Shown: one piece after another, positions 631-60,224 of the stretch
Numbering within the stretch: the stretch's first letter is position 1
Layout: each line of letters starts with the position of its first letter
Source of the DNA: Alphaproteobacteria bacterium
Lineage (GTDB): Bacteria; Pseudomonadota; Alphaproteobacteria; RF32; CAG-239
Reading direction: 5' to 3'
Length of the DNA: 64,000 nt
Assembly (NCBI GenBank): GCA_015062345.1
Contig: SUUV01000004.1
Coordinates: forward strand, 8,298-72,297
Translations under genes and position numbers: made by a program
Notes under the pieces: model-generated
Seen by the model: only the letters and a program-made list of their open reading frames with translations
Database searches by the model: none
What the model was told of the DNA's origin: nothing

Positions 631-788
631 CTACATCATTTTTGATTTAAATTCTTTAAACGACTCTTTTTACTTGCAAAAAAAAAAACGGTTTATGATG
701 CGATGTGAAAGGCAAATTTTTGCACCTTTCAAATGTACTTAAACTTAATTTTTGTAAAGGAATTAAAATTATGAGAAAATATTTTCTT
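631..788 (+). promoter_or_regulatory. Conserved upstream module of pilin-like family, copy 1 (poly-A11 at 678..688)
   Basis: Near-identical to modules at 25564, 35555, 51344 and 60069: TTGCAA(674-679)...TATGAT(694-699), TGAAAGG/CCTTTCA hairpin, aagga RBS, ATGAGAAAATATTTTCTT. Confidence 0.9.
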
Positions 789-11360: not shown

Positions 11361-11732
11361 ATGAAAGACAAAATTTTTATTTGGCTCGGCCTGATATGTG
11401 TGGTCGTTGGCGGAATCGTTGCTCACAATGTTTCAAAATGGGCATTTTTGTTGATATTGGGACTTTATGTTCCTTTGTGTGTTTTTGCTACCGAAAGACA
11501 TGAAAATCGGACAATAGGTTTTTTTGTAGCATCATTGGCCACTTTGGTTGTAATGTTGCTCTTAAAACTGAATGCACACTATGCTTTTATGGCAATTCCC
11601 GCCGCAATGCTGGTCGGTTATGCTCTTATATCCGATAAAAATTGTCTATCAAGCATTGCAGTATGGATTTCCGCACTGATATGGGGTGCTTTGCTGTTTG
11701 TTGTAAGCAATTTGATGTACCTCTTGGTATAA
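11361..11732 (+). CDS. Hypothetical integral membrane protein (4-5 TM)
   Basis: Uniformly hydrophobic 123 aa ORF between a promoter and a terminator. Confidence 0.65.
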   Translation: MKDKIFIWLGLICVVVGGIVAHNVSKWAFLLILGLYVPLCVFATERHENRTIGFFVASLATLVVMLLLKLNAHYAFMAIPAAMLVGYALISDKNCLSSIAVWISALIWGALLFVVSNLMYLLV

Positions 11733-11774
11733 AAAACTTCAACCCGTCGACTTAGTCGTCGGGTTGAAGTTTTT
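11731..11774 (+). terminator. Intrinsic terminator
   Basis: AAAAAACTTCAACCCG...CGGGTTGAAGTTTTTT. Confidence 0.8.
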
Positions 11775-11993
11775 TAGGGGATGAAAAATCTAACTCCGGT
11801 ATTTTTGCCTTATGTAAGAAAAAATAATTTTTAAGTGAAAAGCTAAAATTCAGCAGATTAGACTTGATAAAAAGGAAAGCACAAGGGCATTCGAATATAA
11901 TTAAAAATTTTTTGCTGATGCAAAAATCAGCGGTGACTTGTTTATTAAAAATTTAAATACCATCACCCCAAAGATGACTAATTATCCACAATA

Positions 11994-12038
11994 GACTCTT
12001 TAAAATTGCAAAAAAAACCCCTCCGGTTTATGATGTGA
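11994..12038 (+). promoter_or_regulatory. Promoter related to the pilin-like family module, with a 17 bp spacer
   Basis: gactctttt...TTGCAA(12006-12011)-17 bp-TATGAT(12029-12034)gtga, sharing CGGTTTATGATGTGA with the five modules. Confidence 0.75.
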
Positions 12039-12066
12039 GCAAAATATAATATATGGAGTTAGTTTG

Positions 12067-12636
12067 ATGAAAAAAGTTTGTGAACTTGGAAGAAGTATGG
12101 TAGAAATGCTCGGTGTTTTGGCTATTATCGGAGTTTTATCGGTCGGTGGCATTGCAGGTTATTCAAAAGCCATGCTAAAACATAAAATAAACACAACATT
12201 AGATATTGTATCAGGTGTTATTGCAAAAATAACTGAGTTACAAGTATCCGATTCATTAACGGGTGACATAGATGTTGAAGACGCACCTAAAATAGGTCTT
12301 GACTGTGATTTATATTTTGATGAGCATTATAATGGTCATAAGTGCAAACTTCCTATTGGTGATTATGGCTTTGCGAGTTACACAAATGGTTCCACATATT
12401 TTAGTATATATCCTACAATTGACTTTGCTGTTGATATGTGTAATGCCTTTTTTACAAGCGGTATATATAAGCACTTACATTCTTATGAGTACATTAGAAT
12501 AGATGCTCCGGTTGATGCAGCGCTGTTTTCTCCGGAAGATATGATTAATATAAATATGTCACAAATAAGTAATACTTGCAAATCTACTTGTAGCAACCCA
12601 GAGGCCGTGTGTACGATAGATGTGTTTTTTCAATAA
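12067..12636 (+). CDS. Type IV prepilin-like protein
   Basis: G|RSMVEMLGVLAIIGVLSVGGIAGY class III signal (Glu at +5, hydrophobic helix); Cys-containing C-terminal domain. Confidence 0.75.
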   Translation: MKKVCELGRSMVEMLGVLAIIGVLSVGGIAGYSKAMLKHKINTTLDIVSGVIAKITELQVSDSLTGDIDVEDAPKIGLDCDLYFDEHYNGHKCKLPIGDYGFASYTNGSTYFSIYPTIDFAVDMCNAFFTSGIYKHLHSYEYIRIDAPVDAALFSPEDMININMSQISNTCKSTCSNPEAVCTIDVFFQ

Positions 12637-16075: not shown

Positions 16076-19000
16076 ATGAAATTTAACAAAACAATGCTTT
16101 TAGGAGCAACGGCATTGGTTGGTATGTTTAGTACAACTGATGTGGCAGCAAGTGTAAATAATTACATTGAAAGCGATGCTCAAACATATAATAATGATGT
16201 TGCAAAAAATCTGGATATTTTAGCAGTTGACGCAACCAGAACAGATAATAAAAGTTTTGGTGGTTATGCTTTTGTTAACAGAGGCGCAAGTTTAACTGTA
16301 ACCGGTTCAACATATGAAAATATTACATTTGACGGTTATGGTGCGGTTTTTGCAACCAGAACACCTAAATCCGGAATGTTAGCAACATTAAATGTCGATG
16401 GTACAACATTTAAAAACAATCATGCAAAATTAGATGGCGGTGCTATTGCCAACTATAATGCATTAACGATTACGGGTTCTGTTTTTGAAGGTAATACCGC
16501 TAATTTGGATTTGGAAAACGGAGCATACTCAAAAGTTGTAGATATGAGCACCAGTATCGGAGGCGGAGCCATCGCTTTAGGTGCGGTGTCTGATGCCAAA
16601 ATTGCTTCAATTACCGATACCAAGTTCATAAACAATATTTCGGGACGCTCCGGCGGTGCAATCGGTACTCGTTTAGGCAATGTGGCTGATAACTCGGGAG
16701 CAAAATTAAAAGTTTCTGCATATTTCAAAGGAAACCATGCTTTTCAAGATGGTGGTGCTTTGTATAACACATTCTATGCCGGAGAAAAAGGTGTAGAAGT
16801 TACAGGTGAGTTTGATGGCAATACTGCAGGTGTTTCCGGCGGTGCAATTTATAATGACGGTGCAAAAGATAAATCAGGAAATGTTGGCGGTAAAATGACC
16901 ATTACGGATTCTACTTTTACCGCAAATGAATCCGGTGTAGACGGCGGTGCCATTTTTAACACAGGTGATTTAAAAATCAGCTCATCTGTTTTTGATAAAA
17001 ATGTGGCTTCAATAGAAGGTGAAGGTTACGGCGGTGCTATCTTTTCAAACGCCAGAGGCCTTAATATAGATGGTACGGATTTTACCAATAATACCGCATA
17101 TTCAGGTGGTGCAATTTATGAATCGAGATATTCTGCTTATAGTAGTGACAATGCTAAAGGTATGGTTATTTCAGATGCTACATTTACAAGCAACCATGCG
17201 GCTGCAGACGGCGGTGCTATCGGTCTTAGCAAAAAAGCCACAATTACTGATGCCGTATTTACATCTAACACTGCAGGTTTGTCAGAAGGCGGAATAAGTG
17301 CTGCTTCAGATGCAAACGGCGGTGGTGCTGTTTATGTTGCACAATATGGACAAGCAACTTTATCAAATGTTAAATTTTATGATAATAAGTCAGGTGCTCA
17401 TGGTGGCGCTATCGGTGCAAGGCACAATGTTGCTGACGGAGGTTTCTTATCTTTAACCAATGCAATATTTGAGGGTAACAGTGCAACCAAAGAAGGTGGC
17501 GCTATTGCAAGTATTTATAATGGTTCTGTCAATATTGAAGATGCTACTTTTACAAATAATACGGCAGGTACAAATGGTGGTGCCATCTATATTGGTGTAG
17601 CTGACAACTTTGGCGGTTCAGACGGAAAATCTACACCTTCTACAGGTGGCGGTACTATCAATTTTTCAGGCTTGAATACATTTAGCGGTAACAGTGATGC
17701 CAAAGGTCTAAATGATATCTATAACGATGGTAGCATCAATGTTTTAAGCGGTGCTGAGCTTCAACTTGATGGCGGTATTTCAGGAACAGGTTCTATTGTT
17801 TTTGAAAGTGGTTCAAAGTTGCAAGTTAATGCTAATGAAACATTTATATCCAATGATGTTACCAACAACGGTGTTGAATTGAGCATGGTGTTTAAAAATG
17901 CTTATACCGGCCCATATGAAATGGTAACAGGAACAGTTACGGGTGCATTCGGTGATGTTGAAAACTCCTTGTATGACATCATTGAAACCGATGTTTTGGG
18001 TACATTTGAAATTTCTAAAAAATCCTCAGAAGAAATTGCTGAAAATACCGGTGCAAGCGGTAGTCAGGCGGAGGCTTTAGATGCAGTATTAAGCGGAACT
18101 TCCGAAAGCAACGAAAACTTTAATACTGCTGCCGATAACATTGTCGGAATGCTTCAAAACGAAGAAACAAAATCTGAAGGCTTGAAAGCATTAGATGCAA
18201 TGTCAGCTGAAGCCGCTCCGATTGTTAAAGCTTCTCAAACCAATTTGGTTAGCCAGATTCATGGTGTGGTTTCTACTCGTATGACAGGCGGAAACATCAA
18301 TGCCGGAAAAGGTAAATCATCAGGTGATTTGTTTGAAAATGCGGCTACTTGGGTACAAGGTATGATAAACCATACCAAGCTTGACGGTCAATTTGATACC
18401 GATACAAACGGTTTGGCATTTGGTTTTGAAAGACATGTAAACGATGAAATTAAAGTCGGTGTTGCTTATGCTTTGGCAAAAACCGTCATTGAAAGCTACA
18501 GTCGTGATACACAGGTTAAAACTCATTCTGCAATTGCATATGCCGAATATAAGCCTTCAAACTGGTTTGTAAATGGTATTTTGAGCTACAGTGTATCTGA
18601 TTATGAAGAAGATAAAGTTGTTGCCGGTGTAAACGGTGAGGCCGATTATAAAGCAACCAACATTTCAATTCAAGCTGTTACCGGTTATGAATATTTAACC
18701 AAACACGCACTTGTTACTCCGACTTTCGGATTGCGTTATATGAATATTGACCGTGACGGTTACACCGATGCATTGGGTACCAATGTTGACAGTAACAACA
18801 TGGATACATTAACTGCCGTGTTGGGTGTTAAATTCTCTGCAAACTATGTTGTAAGAGAAAAGACATACACTCCGGAACTTCGTATGGCTGTTACTTACGA
18901 TTTGATTCGTGATGATGACAATGCGCTTGTAACATTGGCAAATGGTGCCGCATACAGTGTTAATAACTCCGGCTTAAAGCGTTTTGCTTATGAGTTTGGT

Positions 19001-19117
19001 GCAGGCATTACAACCGCAATTAATGACGAATGGGAATTGAATGTTGCATATGAAGGTAAATTCCGTAAAGATTATCAGGATCATACCGGACTTATCAATG
19101 CTAAATTTCATTTCTAA
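16076..19117 (+). CDS. Autotransporter with Pmp-like GGA(I/L/V)/FxxN repeats
   Basis: Signal peptide, many FxxN..GGAI repeats, C-terminal beta-barrel ending AKFHF. Confidence 0.88.
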   Translation: MKFNKTMLLGATALVGMFSTTDVAASVNNYIESDAQTYNNDVAKNLDILAVDATRTDNKSFGGYAFVNRGASLTVTGSTYENITFDGYGAVFATRTPKSGMLATLNVDGTTFKNNHAKLDGGAIANYNALTITGSVFEGNTANLDLENGAYSKVVDMSTSIGGGAIALGAVSDAKIASITDTKFINNISGRSGGAIGTRLGNVADNSGAKLKVSAYFKGNHAFQDGGALYNTFYAGEKGVEVTGEFDGNTAGVSGGAIYNDGAKDKSGNVGGKMTITDSTFTANESGVDGGAIFNTGDLKISSSVFDKNVASIEGEGYGGAIFSNARGLNIDGTDFTNNTAYSGGAIYESRYSAYSSDNAKGMVISDATFTSNHAAADGGAIGLSKKATITDAVFTSNTAGLSEGGISAASDANGGGAVYVAQYGQATLSNVKFYDNKSGAHGGAIGARHNVADGGFLSLTNAIFEGNSATKEGGAIASIYNGSVNIEDATFTNNTAGTNGGAIYIGVADNFGGSDGKSTPSTGGGTINFSGLNTFSGNSDAKGLNDIYNDGSINVLSGAELQLDGGISGTGSIVFESGSKLQVNANETFISNDVTNNGVELSMVFKNAYTGPYEMVTGTVTGAFGDVENSLYDIIETDVLGTFEISKKSSEEIAENTGASGSQAEALDAVLSGTSESNENFNTAADNIVGMLQNEETKSEGLKALDAMSAEAAPIVKASQTNLVSQIHGVVSTRMTGGNINAGKGKSSGDLFENAATWVQGMINHTKLDGQFDTDTNGLAFGFERHVNDEIKVGVAYALAKTVIESYSRDTQVKTHSAIAYAEYKPSNWFVNGILSYSVSDYEEDKVVAGVNGEADYKATNISIQAVTGYEYLTKHALVTPTFGLRYMNIDRDGYTDALGTNVDSNNMDTLTAVLGVKFSANYVVREKTYTPELRMAVTYDLIRDDDNALVTLANGAAYSVNNSGLKRFAYEFGAGITTAINDEWELNVAYEGKFRKDYQDHTGLINAKFHF

Positions 19118-23672: not shown

Positions 23673-24227
23673 ATGATAAAAAAAATAATCTGTGCTTTGG
23701 CTTTTGTGTTGTGCGCTTTTGTTGCAAATGCAAGCGAAACCGATGGTATGAACTGGAAAGAAAAAATTAAATATAACTTTTCGCAAACTTGGGCTTCCGA
23801 CACATATGACTTGTATGTTCCATTATATGCTTGGCATAACCGCCTGACATATGATGATGAACATATTGATAAATATAATGAAAATCCGTGGGGTGGCGGA
23901 CTTGGTGTTTCTCGTTACGATTCCGATGGCGACTGGCATGCTTTGTATGCAATGGCCTTTATAGATTCTAACGATTATGTTGAAACTATGTTCGGATACG
24001 CATTTTTGAAAAATTGGTACTTAAATAAGGCAAAAGATTTTAGGATTGGAGTCGGCTTTACGGCGGGGCTTACTCAAAGGCATGAATATTCGTATATTCC
24101 GGTGCCGTTGCCGTTGCCGATGTTTGGTATCGGATATAAAAGGTTTGATTTGCAGGCTGCATATGTTCCGGGAGTGGAAAACGACGGAAATGTGTTGTTT
24201 GTATGGTCAAGATTTAAGTTAAACTGA
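23673..24227 (+). CDS. pagP: Lipid A palmitoyltransferase PagP
   Basis: YDLYVP..AWHNR..YD, YNENPWGGGLG, LYAMAF.DS (catalytic His/Asp/Ser equivalents), PLPLP, YVPG..NDGNVLF. Confidence 0.88.
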   Translation: MIKKIICALAFVLCAFVANASETDGMNWKEKIKYNFSQTWASDTYDLYVPLYAWHNRLTYDDEHIDKYNENPWGGGLGVSRYDSDGDWHALYAMAFIDSNDYVETMFGYAFLKNWYLNKAKDFRIGVGFTAGLTQRHEYSYIPVPLPLPMFGIGYKRFDLQAAYVPGVENDGNVLFVWSRFKLN

Positions 24228-25581: not shown

Positions 25582-25721
25582 AATTTTAAATCCTTTACAA
25601 AAATTCAAGTTTAAATGTACTTGAAAGGTAAAAACTCACCTTTCACATCACATCATAAACCGTTTTTTTTTTTTGCAAGTAAAAAGAGTCTTTGCGTGGA
25701 TTTAAATCAAAAATGAGGTAG
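25564..25721 (-). promoter_or_regulatory. Conserved upstream module, copy 2 (poly-A12; T12 at 25663..25674)
   Basis: Reverse-complement match to 631..788. Confidence 0.9.
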
Positions 25722-35572: not shown

Positions 35573-35713
35573 AATTTTATTCCTTTACAAAAATTAAGTT
35601 TAAGTACATTTGAAAGGTGCAAAAATTTACCTTTCACATCACATCATAAACCGTTTTTTTTTTTTGCAAGTAAAAAGAGTCGTTTAAAGAATTTAAATCA
35701 AAAATGAGGTAAG
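35555..35713 (-). promoter_or_regulatory. Conserved upstream module, copy 3 (T12 at 35654..35665)
   Basis: Near-identical to copy 1. Confidence 0.9.
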
Positions 35714-52075: not shown

Positions 52076-54541
52076 ATGGTTAATGAAGTCGGCATACAAA
52101 ATGATTTTGATGTATTGGCAGAGTTTACGGGAACTGCCGCTTTTTCGTATAATGAAATACATAATCAATATATTTCAACTTCCACTTCTTATGATTATCC
52201 GAGAATTATCCGTGAAGTCAGCAAAGCCCGAGGTTGGTCACATGAAAAAACCAAACAAGAGCTGATTGATGCCGGTGTCTTGGTATATTTATCAAATGAT
52301 GAATATGCCGTTGATGTTCATGGCACAACCAGAAACGGAGGTGGTGTAAATTATAATCAAGGGTTGGTGCTATTTAATTTTGATAAAGCAGATTCTCAAT
52401 CAACATATCATGAATACGCTCATTCACTCCAAAGCATTTATGAGACATTTAACGATAACACACTAAAACAAATGTATGATAATGTCGGTCTTGATATTAA
52501 AGCTGAGTCCGAGTTTGAAAAACACGATTATACAAGATATTTGAAAGAAATGCATGCAGACACTTTCGGATTTGCCGCATTGCTGTTAAGGGCTGAAAGT
52601 TTGCCGGAGTTTTTAGAAATTTCATTAAGAGCAATGCGACGAGCAGCTCATATGACTGTAAAGGGTGAAAATCAAAAAAATACGATATATGGTCGAGATG
52701 ATTCAAATTTAAAATATTATGCCTCCTATAATGTAATGAAAAAAACCATAAAAGAAATATGGAAAATAAGAAACTTAAAAGACATAAATCAATATTTTGA
52801 TGAAAACGGAGTTATAAAATTTAAAGAGTTGTGCAAGTTATCTGAAGATATTGTATCACAAAGTGCCTATTCTCCAAAACAATTTAAGGCTTTTAAAAAT
52901 CATTCTTTGAACATTTCATACACAAAAAGAGGTATACACCCCATTGACCACAATCACAAAAGAGATATCTTAAATTCAATAATATTGCTTGGCATGGTTA
53001 CTATGCTTGAGGCCATAAGAAAGAAAAAAATGACCAAAAGCATCAAAGCTCAATCTTTAGCGCATAAAAAACTGATTGACGAATATACAAACTTGCAAAA
53101 TAAGTTTGTGCAGTTGGACATAATTGATAATGTATCAAAACCGCTCATTGCTGAGCAAAGCATTGAAAGGTTACATGCCGGTATTGCAATGATAAATCAC
53201 AAATTAGGTTTTCCTTCGATTGGTGAAGATATTTTAAGAACAATGATACATAAACGCTATAAAAATCAAGACTTCACCGAAGAAAATCGCAAAAAAGATA
53301 TTGAAAATTGTTGTATGCTCATGAACATAAAGAATAGTCAAGACATTGAGTTGTTGAGTAACTTTTTGTTACGAGCAGATGCAATTTGTGCCATAAATAT
53401 TCACAATGAATATTTCAAAAAAATTATGTCATATTCTGATGAAACATTATACGAGCAACGAGACATCATTAAAACTCTAAAAGAAAAGCCGGAAAAATTA
53501 AAATATTCGCATGAAGTTATAAGGCCGCTGATTGAAAAAGAAGAACCGTTGATGCTTTTGCAAAATGCAGATAAAATTAAGGCTTTAATTGAATTAGGTT
53601 ATGATGTTAATAAACAAGATATTGATGGGTACACTCCTTTAATGTGCTGTATGAATCCTGAAAAAACAAAAGTTTTGCTTGAAAACGGTGCCGATATTAA
53701 TGCAAAAGATTCTGAAGGCAACACAGCATTGATGCAAACTGACAATAAAATGATTATGCAAGTTTTATTGGAAGCAAAACCAAATTTAGAAATTAAAAAC
53801 AATATTGGTAGAACTGCTCTTATGAACTGTACCAATCTTGAATGCGTTGAATTGTTGATAAATGCAGGTGCTGACATAAACGCACAAGATAACAATGGTG
53901 ATACGGCTTTAATATTATCCACCGAGCAAGAAGAATTGAAAACTCTGCTTAAAGCTAAACCCAATCTGGAAATTAAAAACAAAAAAGGCAAAACCGCTTT
54001 AACATCTTTTACCAATGCCGAAAATTTTGCATTGTTGCTCAATGCCGGCGCCAACATTACAACAAAAGACAATTATGGTAGCAATCCGTTGATGGGTGTT
54101 TTGATATCAGATATACCGGATATTCAAAAAGAAAAAATTGTTGATATATTGCTTGATAAAAAAATTGAAGCAAATGATACAAACAAAGACAATGAAAACG
54201 CACTTGTATATGTAGCAAGAAGCAAAAAAATCAGCAATGAGTTTAAAAATTCTTTAGCGCAAAAGCTCATATTATATGGTGTTGACATTGATTCCGCATT
54301 AAGTAAAATTCCCAATAAAAACGAAAAGGAAATTATCACAAATGCTAATCAAGAAATACAAAAAAAAGCACAAAGGCTTGCAACCATTAGAAATAAGATT
54401 GCCAAAGGTGTTGATAAAATTGATGAAAAAATCGGCTCACCCATACAAAAGGTGTTAGGTAAAAAAGTTCAGGACATTCAGCTTCCTGATGCCATAAAGC
54501 AAACCGAAGCCCAAATCAGCTCAAAATTGTTCCGAAGATAA
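52076..54541 (+). CDS. Ankyrin-repeat protein with N-terminal HExxH (zincin-like) domain
   Basis: YHEYAH and downstream EMHAD; several G.TPL/TAL...LL..GADIN ankyrin repeats in the C-terminal third. Confidence 0.75.
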   Translation: MVNEVGIQNDFDVLAEFTGTAAFSYNEIHNQYISTSTSYDYPRIIREVSKARGWSHEKTKQELIDAGVLVYLSNDEYAVDVHGTTRNGGGVNYNQGLVLFNFDKADSQSTYHEYAHSLQSIYETFNDNTLKQMYDNVGLDIKAESEFEKHDYTRYLKEMHADTFGFAALLLRAESLPEFLEISLRAMRRAAHMTVKGENQKNTIYGRDDSNLKYYASYNVMKKTIKEIWKIRNLKDINQYFDENGVIKFKELCKLSEDIVSQSAYSPKQFKAFKNHSLNISYTKRGIHPIDHNHKRDILNSIILLGMVTMLEAIRKKKMTKSIKAQSLAHKKLIDEYTNLQNKFVQLDIIDNVSKPLIAEQSIERLHAGIAMINHKLGFPSIGEDILRTMIHKRYKNQDFTEENRKKDIENCCMLMNIKNSQDIELLSNFLLRADAICAINIHNEYFKKIMSYSDETLYEQRDIIKTLKEKPEKLKYSHEVIRPLIEKEEPLMLLQNADKIKALIELGYDVNKQDIDGYTPLMCCMNPEKTKVLLENGADINAKDSEGNTALMQTDNKMIMQVLLEAKPNLEIKNNIGRTALMNCTNLECVELLINAGADINAQDNNGDTALILSTEQEELKTLLKAKPNLEIKNKKGKTALTSFTNAENFALLLNAGANITTKDNYGSNPLMGVLISDIPDIQKEKIVDILLDKKIEANDTNKDNENALVYVARSKKISNEFKNSLAQKLILYGVDIDSALSKIPNKNEKEIITNANQEIQKKAQRLATIRNKIAKGVDKIDEKIGSPIQKVLGKKVQDIQLPDAIKQTEAQISSKLFRR

Positions 54542-56585: not shown

Positions 56586-56630
56586 ATATATTAAAACCTC
56601 CCCTTGTTTATAACTTGGGGAGGGAAAATT

Positions 56631-56890
56631 TTAACTATTAGTAATAATTGTAAGGGTAAAAGTGCCTACATAATCACCGGCTTCTATTTTGGAAGGGATA
56701 TGCAATGTGCCACCCATTCCCCAATTATCATCATCAGACAAGTCTAATGTTAATGTTTTTGTTTTACCGGCGGCAAAAAGTTCAATTGTTGATGGATAAT
56801 CCACACCTACCGCATCGGAAAAATGATAACCACCGGGAAATTCATCACAAACAGATGAGGTGGCTGATGTTGTAAATTGTACATAAAGAC
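56631..56890 (-). pseudogene. 5'-truncated pilin-like paralog 6
   Basis: Not in the ORF track. Minus frame ...CDEFPGGYHF...WGMGGTLHIPSKIEAGDYVGTFTLTIITNS* carries the family C-terminal motif; no start, signal peptide or module. Confidence 0.75.
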
Positions 56891-60086: not shown

Positions 60087-60224
60087 AATTTAATCCTTTA
60101 CAAAAATAGTTTAAGTACATTTGAAAGGTGCAAAAATTTACCTTTCACATCGCATCATAAACCGTTTTTTTTTTTTGCAAGTAAAAAGAGTCTTTTAAGG
60201 TATTTAAATCAAATTTGAGGTAAG
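60069..60224 (-). promoter_or_regulatory. Conserved upstream module, copy 5 (T12 at 60165..60176)
   Basis: Near-identical to the other copies. Confidence 0.9.

Follow-up and report, generated by a model that had tools for sequence, protein, structure and literature searches.

Promoters controlled by a homopolymer have been described for individual genes or small gene families of pathogens. In Neisseria, the poly-G tract of porA and the poly-C tract of opc, both located between the -35 and -10 hexamers, grade the expression of surface proteins. The vlp genes of Mycoplasma hyorhinis, studied by Citti and Wise, reportedly have a poly-A tract in the same position, and a change of a single base in its length is said to switch expression. 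These are said to be clustered lipoprotein genes of a wall-less bacterium, in which the 'on' state corresponds to 17 A's. The element described here is a promoter-like cassette with a poly-A tract, one copy of which precedes the gene of a type IV prepilin-like protein in a 64,000-nucleotide stretch of DNA (the window) from a gut alphaproteobacterium (contig SUUV01000004.1 of assembly GCA_015062345.1). All positions refer to the window.

In Bordetella, the unlinked subunit genes fim2, fim3, fimX and fimN share a promoter, and the length of its C-stretch affects transcription and varies between strains (PMC1891110). Interrupted tracts, C6TC3 and C9TC8, are found in the fim promoters of B. parapertussis (PMC1891110). 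The alphaproteobacterial cassette resembles these systems in several respects. On balance, it is best described as a sigma-70-type promoter family in which the homopolymer sets the spacing between the two hexamers, and the pilin copy in the window, the tract of which is A8CCCCTC, would be a stabilized and constitutively active ('locked on') member of this family.

A cassette shared by pilin and DUF4402 genes

Nucleotides 11994-12038, upstream of an intact gene for a prepilin-like protein of 189 amino acids (aa), read GACTCTTT-aaaa-TTGCAA-A6CCCCTCCGGTT-TATGAT-GTGA. Re-reading of positions 11994-12636 agreed with a preliminary description of the locus: the A-run is short (A8) and is interrupted by C's, and TTGCAA and TATGAT are separated by exactly 17 bp. 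Identical blocks border the tract of five cassettes elsewhere in the window; in these the tract is A11 (one copy) or A12 (four copies), giving a spacer of 14 or 15 bp. Chance is far from sufficient to explain this resemblance. Within the window, the 12-mer CGGTTTATGATG is present six times compared to 0.009 expected occurrences, the 15-mer CGGTTTATGATGTGA (the 12-mer followed by TGA) four times compared to 0.0002, and TTGCAAAAAAAA seven times compared to 0.05. Five of the six copies of the 12-mer sit in a block of about 170 bp upstream of genes for paralogous secreted proteins of 144-172 aa that begin with MRKYFLL, and three of these five proteins exceed the curated cut-off of the Pfam family DUF4402. 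A literature search found no paper mentioning DUF4402. In addition to the five genes, a DUF4402 relic is present on the minus strand at ~56610-56700; it consists of the C-terminal coding end only (…GGTLHIPSKIEAGDYVGTFTLTIITNS*) and has neither a cassette nor a 5' part.

The similarity between the pilin and DUF4402 cassettes begins at GACTC and ends a few bases past the -10 hexamer. The 5' leader is about 80 nt long and contains a hairpin in the DUF4402 genes, whereas it is about 26 nt long in the pilin gene, the transcription of which is predicted to start near 12041. Because the similarity ends at the expected transcription start, the pattern is that of a shared promoter. GACTC, at 11994-11998 and 7 nt upstream of TTGC, is a GANTC site. 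GANTC is the CcrM methylation motif of Alphaproteobacteria and is found 100 times in the window compared to 214 times expected from the base composition; its presence at the cassette might provide an additional, epigenetic level of control.

The distribution of the cassette was studied by scanning one genome per species (GTDB) with the pattern TTGC-A8-N(0-8)-CGGTTTA. At least 63 matches had a cassette context, and the cassette counts given below refer to the 63 matches listed. All of these are in records that are titled, where a title is shown, as gut Alphaproteobacteria metagenome-assembled genomes (MAGs). The closest among them, RGIG4267, shares 93 % identity with the window across 3 kb. The cassettes are followed by 35 genes for pilin-like proteins with arginine at position +1 of the mature chain (Arg+1 pilins), with two more outside the filter, and by six DUF4402-like genes. 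The rest comprises 15 cassettes at contig ends and a few others, the latter likewise in front of genes for exported proteins. Within the listed relatives the cassette marks surface and secreted proteins, and the pilin genes are its main users.

The A-run is A12 in 46 of the matches, A11 in eight, A9 in four, A13 in three and A10 in two; a run of A14 or longer and an interrupted run are both absent from all 63. A12 corresponds to a spacer of 15 bp and A13 to one of 16 bp. Among the pilin cassettes A12 is found in 25 of 35, and a single one, with A13, has a spacer of 16 bp or more. The -10 hexamer is TAGAAT, TATGAT, TAAGAT or TATAAT. A GANTC site is positioned 7 nt upstream of TTGC in 49 of 60 cassettes. 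The clade-wide consensus can be written as (GANTC)-N7-TTGCAA-[A-run]-CGGTT-TAnnAT. The part in common reaches from about -47 up to where transcription is predicted to begin, and the 5' untranslated regions are specific to each class of genes, which is again the arrangement expected of a shared promoter.

The sequences upstream of the core are also class-specific, and the window copy has the upstream half of the pilin class (ttatcc.ca..agactctttaaaa), not that of the DUF4402 class. In RGIG4267 and other genomes, however, hybrid cassettes exist in both directions: pilin genes are found behind a DUF4402-type half, and DUF4402 genes behind a pilin-type half. Examples are located at L008 (-) 261, L105 (-) 4662, L052 (-) and L008 (+) 7959, with the joint within TTGC-A12-CGGTTTA. 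Since both kinds of hybrid exist, the cassette halves reassort at the shared core.

Two other kinds of genes were found behind the cassette. At L068:1389-1727 (-), a 113-aa pilin of the TrbC/VirB2 type (type IV secretion) is encoded immediately downstream of a pilin-type cassette with A13 (16 bp). The protein matches PF04956 with 31.1 bits (cut-off 27.9) and E = 2.7e-7, and is a third class of filament subunits on the cassette promoter. A Cys-rich secreted family of about 400 aa (MFIKVSLCGVLTLLSTTSAFALTC...), which has a signal peptide and no Pfam match, is encoded at L093:1140-2414 (+), at L019:1356-2537 (-) and in L069. Its cassette variant is CTTTAAAG-TTGC-A9..A13-CGGTTTATAAT, and its leader is unusually long, 160-190 nt.

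These findings are in good agreement with the earlier proposal that pilin and DUF4402 genes use one promoter family, as the identical blocks in the window are accompanied by occurrences in at least ten related MAGs and by the exchange of halves. The proposal had been considered to be at risk if the motif were common upstream of functionally unrelated genes; among the matches listed in the genome scan the users are surface or secreted proteins. On the other hand, the canonical 17-bp spacer is not a trait of pilin genes, because most of the listed pilin matches have the same 15-bp spacer as the DUF4402 genes. A metagenome contig collection gave no match to the locus-specific flank pattern, although this pattern is present in L002; the general cassette pattern had 114 matches there, all unrelated and none with a poly-A tract, and the clade is evidently absent from that collection.

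The A8CCCCTC allele itself is present on zero-mismatch contigs in the JGI (Joint Genome Institute) metagenome L002 and in three of 12 faecal or gut runs (X1, X6 and X12). The gut runs were compared as assembled contigs, in which the presence of an allele is more readily shown than its absence. In other runs, pilin cassettes that are nearly identical have tracts of A12, A7, A6C and A8CCC, so that the tract is the variable point of an otherwise conserved element, with lengths from A6 to A13 across copies and strains and with recurrent C-interrupted forms (A6C and A8CCC). There is moderate evidence that A8CCCCTC is not fixed at the locus. Because related pilin cassettes normally contain an unbroken A12, it appears to be a rare derived allele of one strain lineage.

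Paralogue contigs start to align at 11962, where the word depth climbs from about 5 to 30-78. The depth reaches 135-200 over the conserved N-terminal coding segment of the pilin gene, compared to 3.4-5.7 for the unique flanks; this excess fits tens of paralogues, co-resident relatives included. Contigs of runs X2-X4 diverge by 3-8 % from the head-coding part of the gene (12165-12600), whereas the flanks of the locus are identical. This suggests allelic replacement or diversifying selection, with paralogue contigs as an alternative source.

Hexamer spacing and the state of the pilin promoter

In a scan with the consensus promoter, TTGCAA-17-TATGAT has 9 of 12 matching positions, lies 32 nt from the ATG and is the only sigma-70-like site on the plus strand of the 290-bp intergenic region. 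To place the -35 hexamer of the A12 copies in another register that gives 17 bp, 'AATTGC' or 'ACTTGC' has to be used, with 0 of 6 consensus positions, and this assignment was rejected. Judged by eye against consensus sequences, TTGCAA/TAnnAT is a better fit than any of the sigma-54 (GG-N10-GC), sigma-28, sigma-32/RpoH-like and EcfG-type promoters or the CtrA box.

Ordinary promoters provide a measure of the spacing used in this clade. In 528 kb of DNA from the clade, the TTGnnn/TAnnnT pairs in front of 142 genes without the cassette peak at a spacing of 17 bp (26 distinct sites); spacings of 16, 18 and 15 bp are represented by 17, 12 and 5 sites, whereas the coding control is flat (1-5). The polymerase therefore seems to be conventional. 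Given an optimum of 16-18 bp, the A12 cassettes are two bases short and the window allele is at the optimum. The preliminary description regarded the pilin copy as an internal control for the assignment of the two hexamers. The flanks are indeed preserved around an interior that has been exchanged and is 2 bp longer, as for a passive spacer, and the resulting 17 bp is the optimum of the clade; but this is a single recent allele, and the control is hence suggestive only.

In the locked-on interpretation, the A-run would act as a spacer between the -35 and -10 hexamers. The A12 copies, with 15 bp, are probably held at low output and would change their state within a clone by replication slippage. 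In the window copy CCCCTC stands in place of four A's, which brings the spacer to 17 bp and at the same time shortens the slippery run to A8. The C interruption has probably fixed this copy in one expression state, and the combination of optimal spacing and a shortened run would most likely result in stable, constitutive expression of the pilin.

Several observations weigh against this interpretation. The consensus promoter scan is not significant on its own (13 sites compared to 9.8 expected). The mode at A12 is sharp in several species, with no A14 or longer run among the listed matches, and the dominance of A12 is as compatible with 15 bp being a selected working geometry as with a poised-off state. 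At L106:9940-9970, a diverged cassette in front of a long-leader pilin of a more distant relative, TTGC-A11-TAAACT-TATAAT, again has 15 bp. Runs X2, X3 and X7 carry the identical unique upstream flank and no contig that spans 12018-12023, and A8CCCCTC may be no more than a mutation of recent origin, either neutral or damaging.

The same geometry can be extended to the whole genome. Tentatively, and with somewhat more reason to doubt than to accept it, the cassette could be a recombining promoter module with a poly-A ruler that is placed upstream of dozens of orphan genes, each of them switchable by slippage, so as to form a contingency system. The system would serve at least three kinds of filament subunits (Arg+1 pilins, DUF4402 proteins of chaperone-usher-like type and VirB2-like pilins) and other secreted proteins. 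A8CCCCTC would then be a natural locked-on copy, and 17 bp the 'on' geometry.

The sharp A12 mode could also have the opposite meaning. It is possible, though unlikely, that the promoter depends on an activator and works at A12 with 15 bp. A factor would occupy the conserved GACTCTTTAAAA-TTGC block, and how far this factor is from the -10 hexamer would be critical, as it is for BvgA at the fim promoters of Bordetella. The window allele would then be weakened, 'locked off' or a neutral recent mutation. The predominance of A12 in several species, the return of 15 bp in the diverged L106 cassette, the conservation of the block upstream of TTGC together with its frequent GANTC site, and the fact that A8CCCCTC is not fixed would all be accounted for. 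Yet the ordinary promoters of the clade peak at 16-18 bp, so TTGCAA/TATGAT at 17 bp should work unaided; the allele precedes an intact gene and has persisted in three samples; and no activator is known.

The reassortment of halves raises the question of whether the core serves mainly as a joint for recombination or gene conversion, by which self-contained cassettes of surface genes are moved and reassorted between loci, with the promoter role being secondary and the C interruption a by-product of exchange. Hybrids in both directions agree with this, as do the 81 %-identical pilin of L001, which is in a different genomic neighborhood, and the samples in which a diverged head-coding region is enclosed by identical flanks. 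The core, however, has the position, the hexamers and the start-codon distance of a promoter, and neither a recombinase gene nor inverted repeats of an invertible element were found at the flanks of the promoter core. An invertible-promoter explanation of the locus was discarded for lack of convincing inverted repeats at the flanks. As the primary function of the core, a recombination joint is improbable; it is compatible with a promoter, and both may hold. Finally, that the interrupted tract is a homopolymer artefact of sequencing or assembly, and the DUF4402 resemblance a matter of chance, is hardly credible, because, although errors are frequent in homopolymers and the assemblies are of unstated provenance, the identical 14-nt tract is present on zero-mismatch contigs from different assemblers (L002, X1, X6 and X12) and the exact 15-mer, 12-mer and 8-mer blocks are expected 0.0002 to 2.4 times per window.

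Organization of the locus and the Arg+1 pilin family

The features of the locus and the DUF4402 cassettes are listed in Table 1. The pilin gene is a stand-alone transcription unit, as indicated by the terminator hairpin upstream and by the convergent orientation of the downstream gene. The ATG at 12067, rather than the TTG at 12064, is taken as the start codon on account of the spacing to the ribosome-binding site and of homologues that begin with MRKVCELG. Upstream of the promoter, the 22-nt stretch 11787-11808 is complementary to the ribosome-binding region 12055-12065 (11 nt, 91 %) and also to the intragenic site 12223-12240 (18 nt, 89 %); this is probably due to chance in AT-rich DNA.

Table 1. 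Positions of the pilin locus features and of the DUF4402 cassette cores
Feature	Position	Strand	Remarks
Perfect hairpin with 23-nt arms and A/T runs at its flanks	11730-11776		Inverted repeat; terminates the 123-aa gene that precedes it
Pilin-class upstream half of the cassette (…ATTATCCACAATAGACTCTTTAAAA)	11962-12005	+	Fits the pilin-class consensus ttatcc.ca..agactCtTtaaAA
Promoter block GACTCTTT	11994-12001	+	Followed by AAAA
-35-like hexamer TTGCAA	12006-12011	+	Sole TTG-containing hexamer at a usable distance from the -10
Spacer tract, A8 (12010-12017) and CCCCTC (12018-12023)	12010-12023	+	Interrupted version of the A12 run of the family
Conserved block CGGTTTATGATGTGA	12024-12038	+	Contains the -10-like TATGAT at 12029-12034
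Ribosome-binding site GGAG	12055-12058	+	8 nt upstream of ATG; GGAG-ATG layout also in homologous cassettes
Prepilin-like gene, 189 aa	12067-12636	+	Leader MKKVCELG 12067-12090; predicted cleavage after Gly8; mature start Arg9 (12091)
Pilin gene subregions	to ~12174	+	Family-invariant N-terminal segment; the remainder is the variable Cys-containing head
DUF4402 cassette core 1, GACTCTTTTTAC-TTGC-A11-CGGTTTATGATG	662-700	+	Gene at 771
DUF4402 cassette core 2, A12	25651-25690	-	Gene start 25581
DUF4402 cassette core 3, A12	35642-35681	-	Gene start 35572
DUF4402 cassette core 4, A12	51424-51463	-	Gene start 51361
DUF4402 cassette core 5, A12	60153-60192	-	Gene start 60086

The product of the gene begins with MKKVCELG/RSMVEMLGVLAIIGVLSVGGIAGYSKAM..., where the slash marks the predicted cleavage site; its G/RSMVEML segment contains Gly-1, Arg+1 and Glu+5. 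The N-terminus, MKKVCELG/RSMVEMLGVLAIIGVLSVGGIAGY, has the features of a prepilin, namely Gly-1, Glu+5 and a following stretch of about 20 hydrophobic residues. A search of a large protein collection returned at least 7969 matches at E <= 0.001 among 8000 candidates, and the G/RSM(V/I)EML segment is present in all 120 of the homologues listed. Arg+1 combined with Glu+5, which had been pointed out at the outset, is thus a hallmark of the family and not a quirk of the window gene. Where the source of a homologue is named, it is an 'Alphaproteobacteria bacterium' MAG, and annotations such as 'type II secretion system protein' are attached to these entries. By its sequence, the window gene is a member of a very large type IV-pilin-like family of uncultured gut Alphaproteobacteria. 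The Arg+1 signal would imply a prepilin peptidase specificity that has not yet been described.

Many paralogues (L003, L051, L013, L057, L060, L081 and others) have long leaders of 40-86 aa. In these proteins, a normal short leader (e.g. MRKVCELG) is followed by a basic Cys-containing segment and then by a second G/RSMVEML site.

Some relatives with the identical N-terminus match the Pfam families Bundlin (PF05307) and PilS (PF08805). The window protein itself has no match in Pfam, including its pilin models, and its match to TIGR02532, a model of the prepilin-type N-terminal cleavage-methylation domain (E = 0.33, 10.9 bits), is under the 16.3-bit cut-off. PF07963, the Pfam model for this domain, is reached at E <= 0.1 by 40 of 44 aligned relatives, the best value being 2.3e-4. 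Type IV pilins have a 'lollipop' fold with a long helix at the N-terminus and a globular head. The AlphaFold2 model (mean pLDDT, the predicted local distance difference test score, 83.8) consists of an N-terminal helix of 52 residues (9-60) and an alpha/beta head with conserved cysteines. When this model was compared with the Protein Data Bank (PDB) by Foldseek, nothing matched at E <= 0.001, and the best-scoring entries did not include a pilin. A profile search of the PDB matched the N-termini of geopilin and PilA alone, weakly (E 0.07-0.4).

A residue other than Phe at +1 is common in type IVb pilins. The mature window protein is 181 aa long and its leader 8 aa. Type IVa pilins have Phe at +1, a short leader and a mature length of about 150-160 aa, whereas type IVb pilins have leaders of 15-30 aa and mature chains of 180-200 aa (PMC3927602). 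Compared to the former, the window protein has Arg instead of Phe and is too long, and only its leader fits; compared to the latter, the mature length fits but the leader does not.

A prepilin peptidase, an assembly ATPase, a platform protein and a secretin were not found in the 64-kb window, nor were pilus machinery genes found beside the pilin genes in loci L001, L106, L221 and L222. A motif scan of the retrieved related loci for the GspE/PilB Walker motifs, the prepilin-peptidase GDxK and the secretin motif was negative. The Bundlin/PilS-type relatives of L221 and L222, which are more conserved, lack the poly-A cassette. A tblastn search of a plasmid collection with the pilin gave no match. 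Other surface or host-interaction genes of the window are located at 16076-19117, 52076-54541, 23673-24227 and 41830-47922; among them are genes for a 1013-aa autotransporter with Chlamydia-PMP repeats, an 821-aa protein with ankyrin repeats and PagP, and an uncharacterised open reading frame of 2030 aa.

Relation to known systems

The setting is an uncultured commensal gut lineage without published work on its pili. Here one cassette appears to control several unrelated families of surface filaments, with dozens of genes per genome. The interrupted allele offers a natural experiment, in which the carriers (X1, X6 and X12) can be compared with the non-carriers (X2, X3 and X7) with regard to spacer length and phase variation.

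The protein has its nearest counterparts in the type IV pilins, above all those of type IVb, such as bundlin (BfpA) and the PilS proteins of Salmonella Typhi and plasmid R64. It shares with them Gly-1, Glu+5 and the hydrophobic helix (class III signal peptide) and a mature length within their range, and its relatives with the same N-terminus match the corresponding Pfam families. The window family differs in the invariant Arg+1, the 8-aa leader and the orphan state of the gene, which has no machinery nearby; furthermore, the window protein lacks a Pfam pilin match, and its head has no significant Foldseek match in the PDB.

The promoter shares two features with phase-variable promoters that have a homopolymeric spacer: TTGC-A(n)-CGGTT-TAnnAT is found in all cassettes, and the length of the tract is polymorphic between copies and strains. 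With porA and opc of Neisseria it has in common a homopolymer in a sigma-70 spacer, but those are single genes, whereas here one cassette has been copied in front of many genes of several families. The vlp system of M. hyorhinis is similar in that a poly-A promoter spacer is used in a multigene family of variable surface proteins; it differs from the system described here, in which dispersed genes of a Gram-negative alphaproteobacterium have a modal spacer of only 15 bp. The Bordetella fim promoters, with their 'C-stretch' and 'fim box', are the closest system described so far; they likewise represent one conserved promoter that serves unlinked subunit genes and has a homopolymer between an upstream element and the -10 hexamer. 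In both systems the tract length differs between genes and strains, and interrupted tracts exist, in Bordetella in the sister species B. parapertussis. Nevertheless, the fim tract is poly-C and is present in four copies, whereas the cassette described here, known from its sequence alone and with no activator known, has a poly-A tract and occurs in dozens of copies in front of several unrelated protein families.

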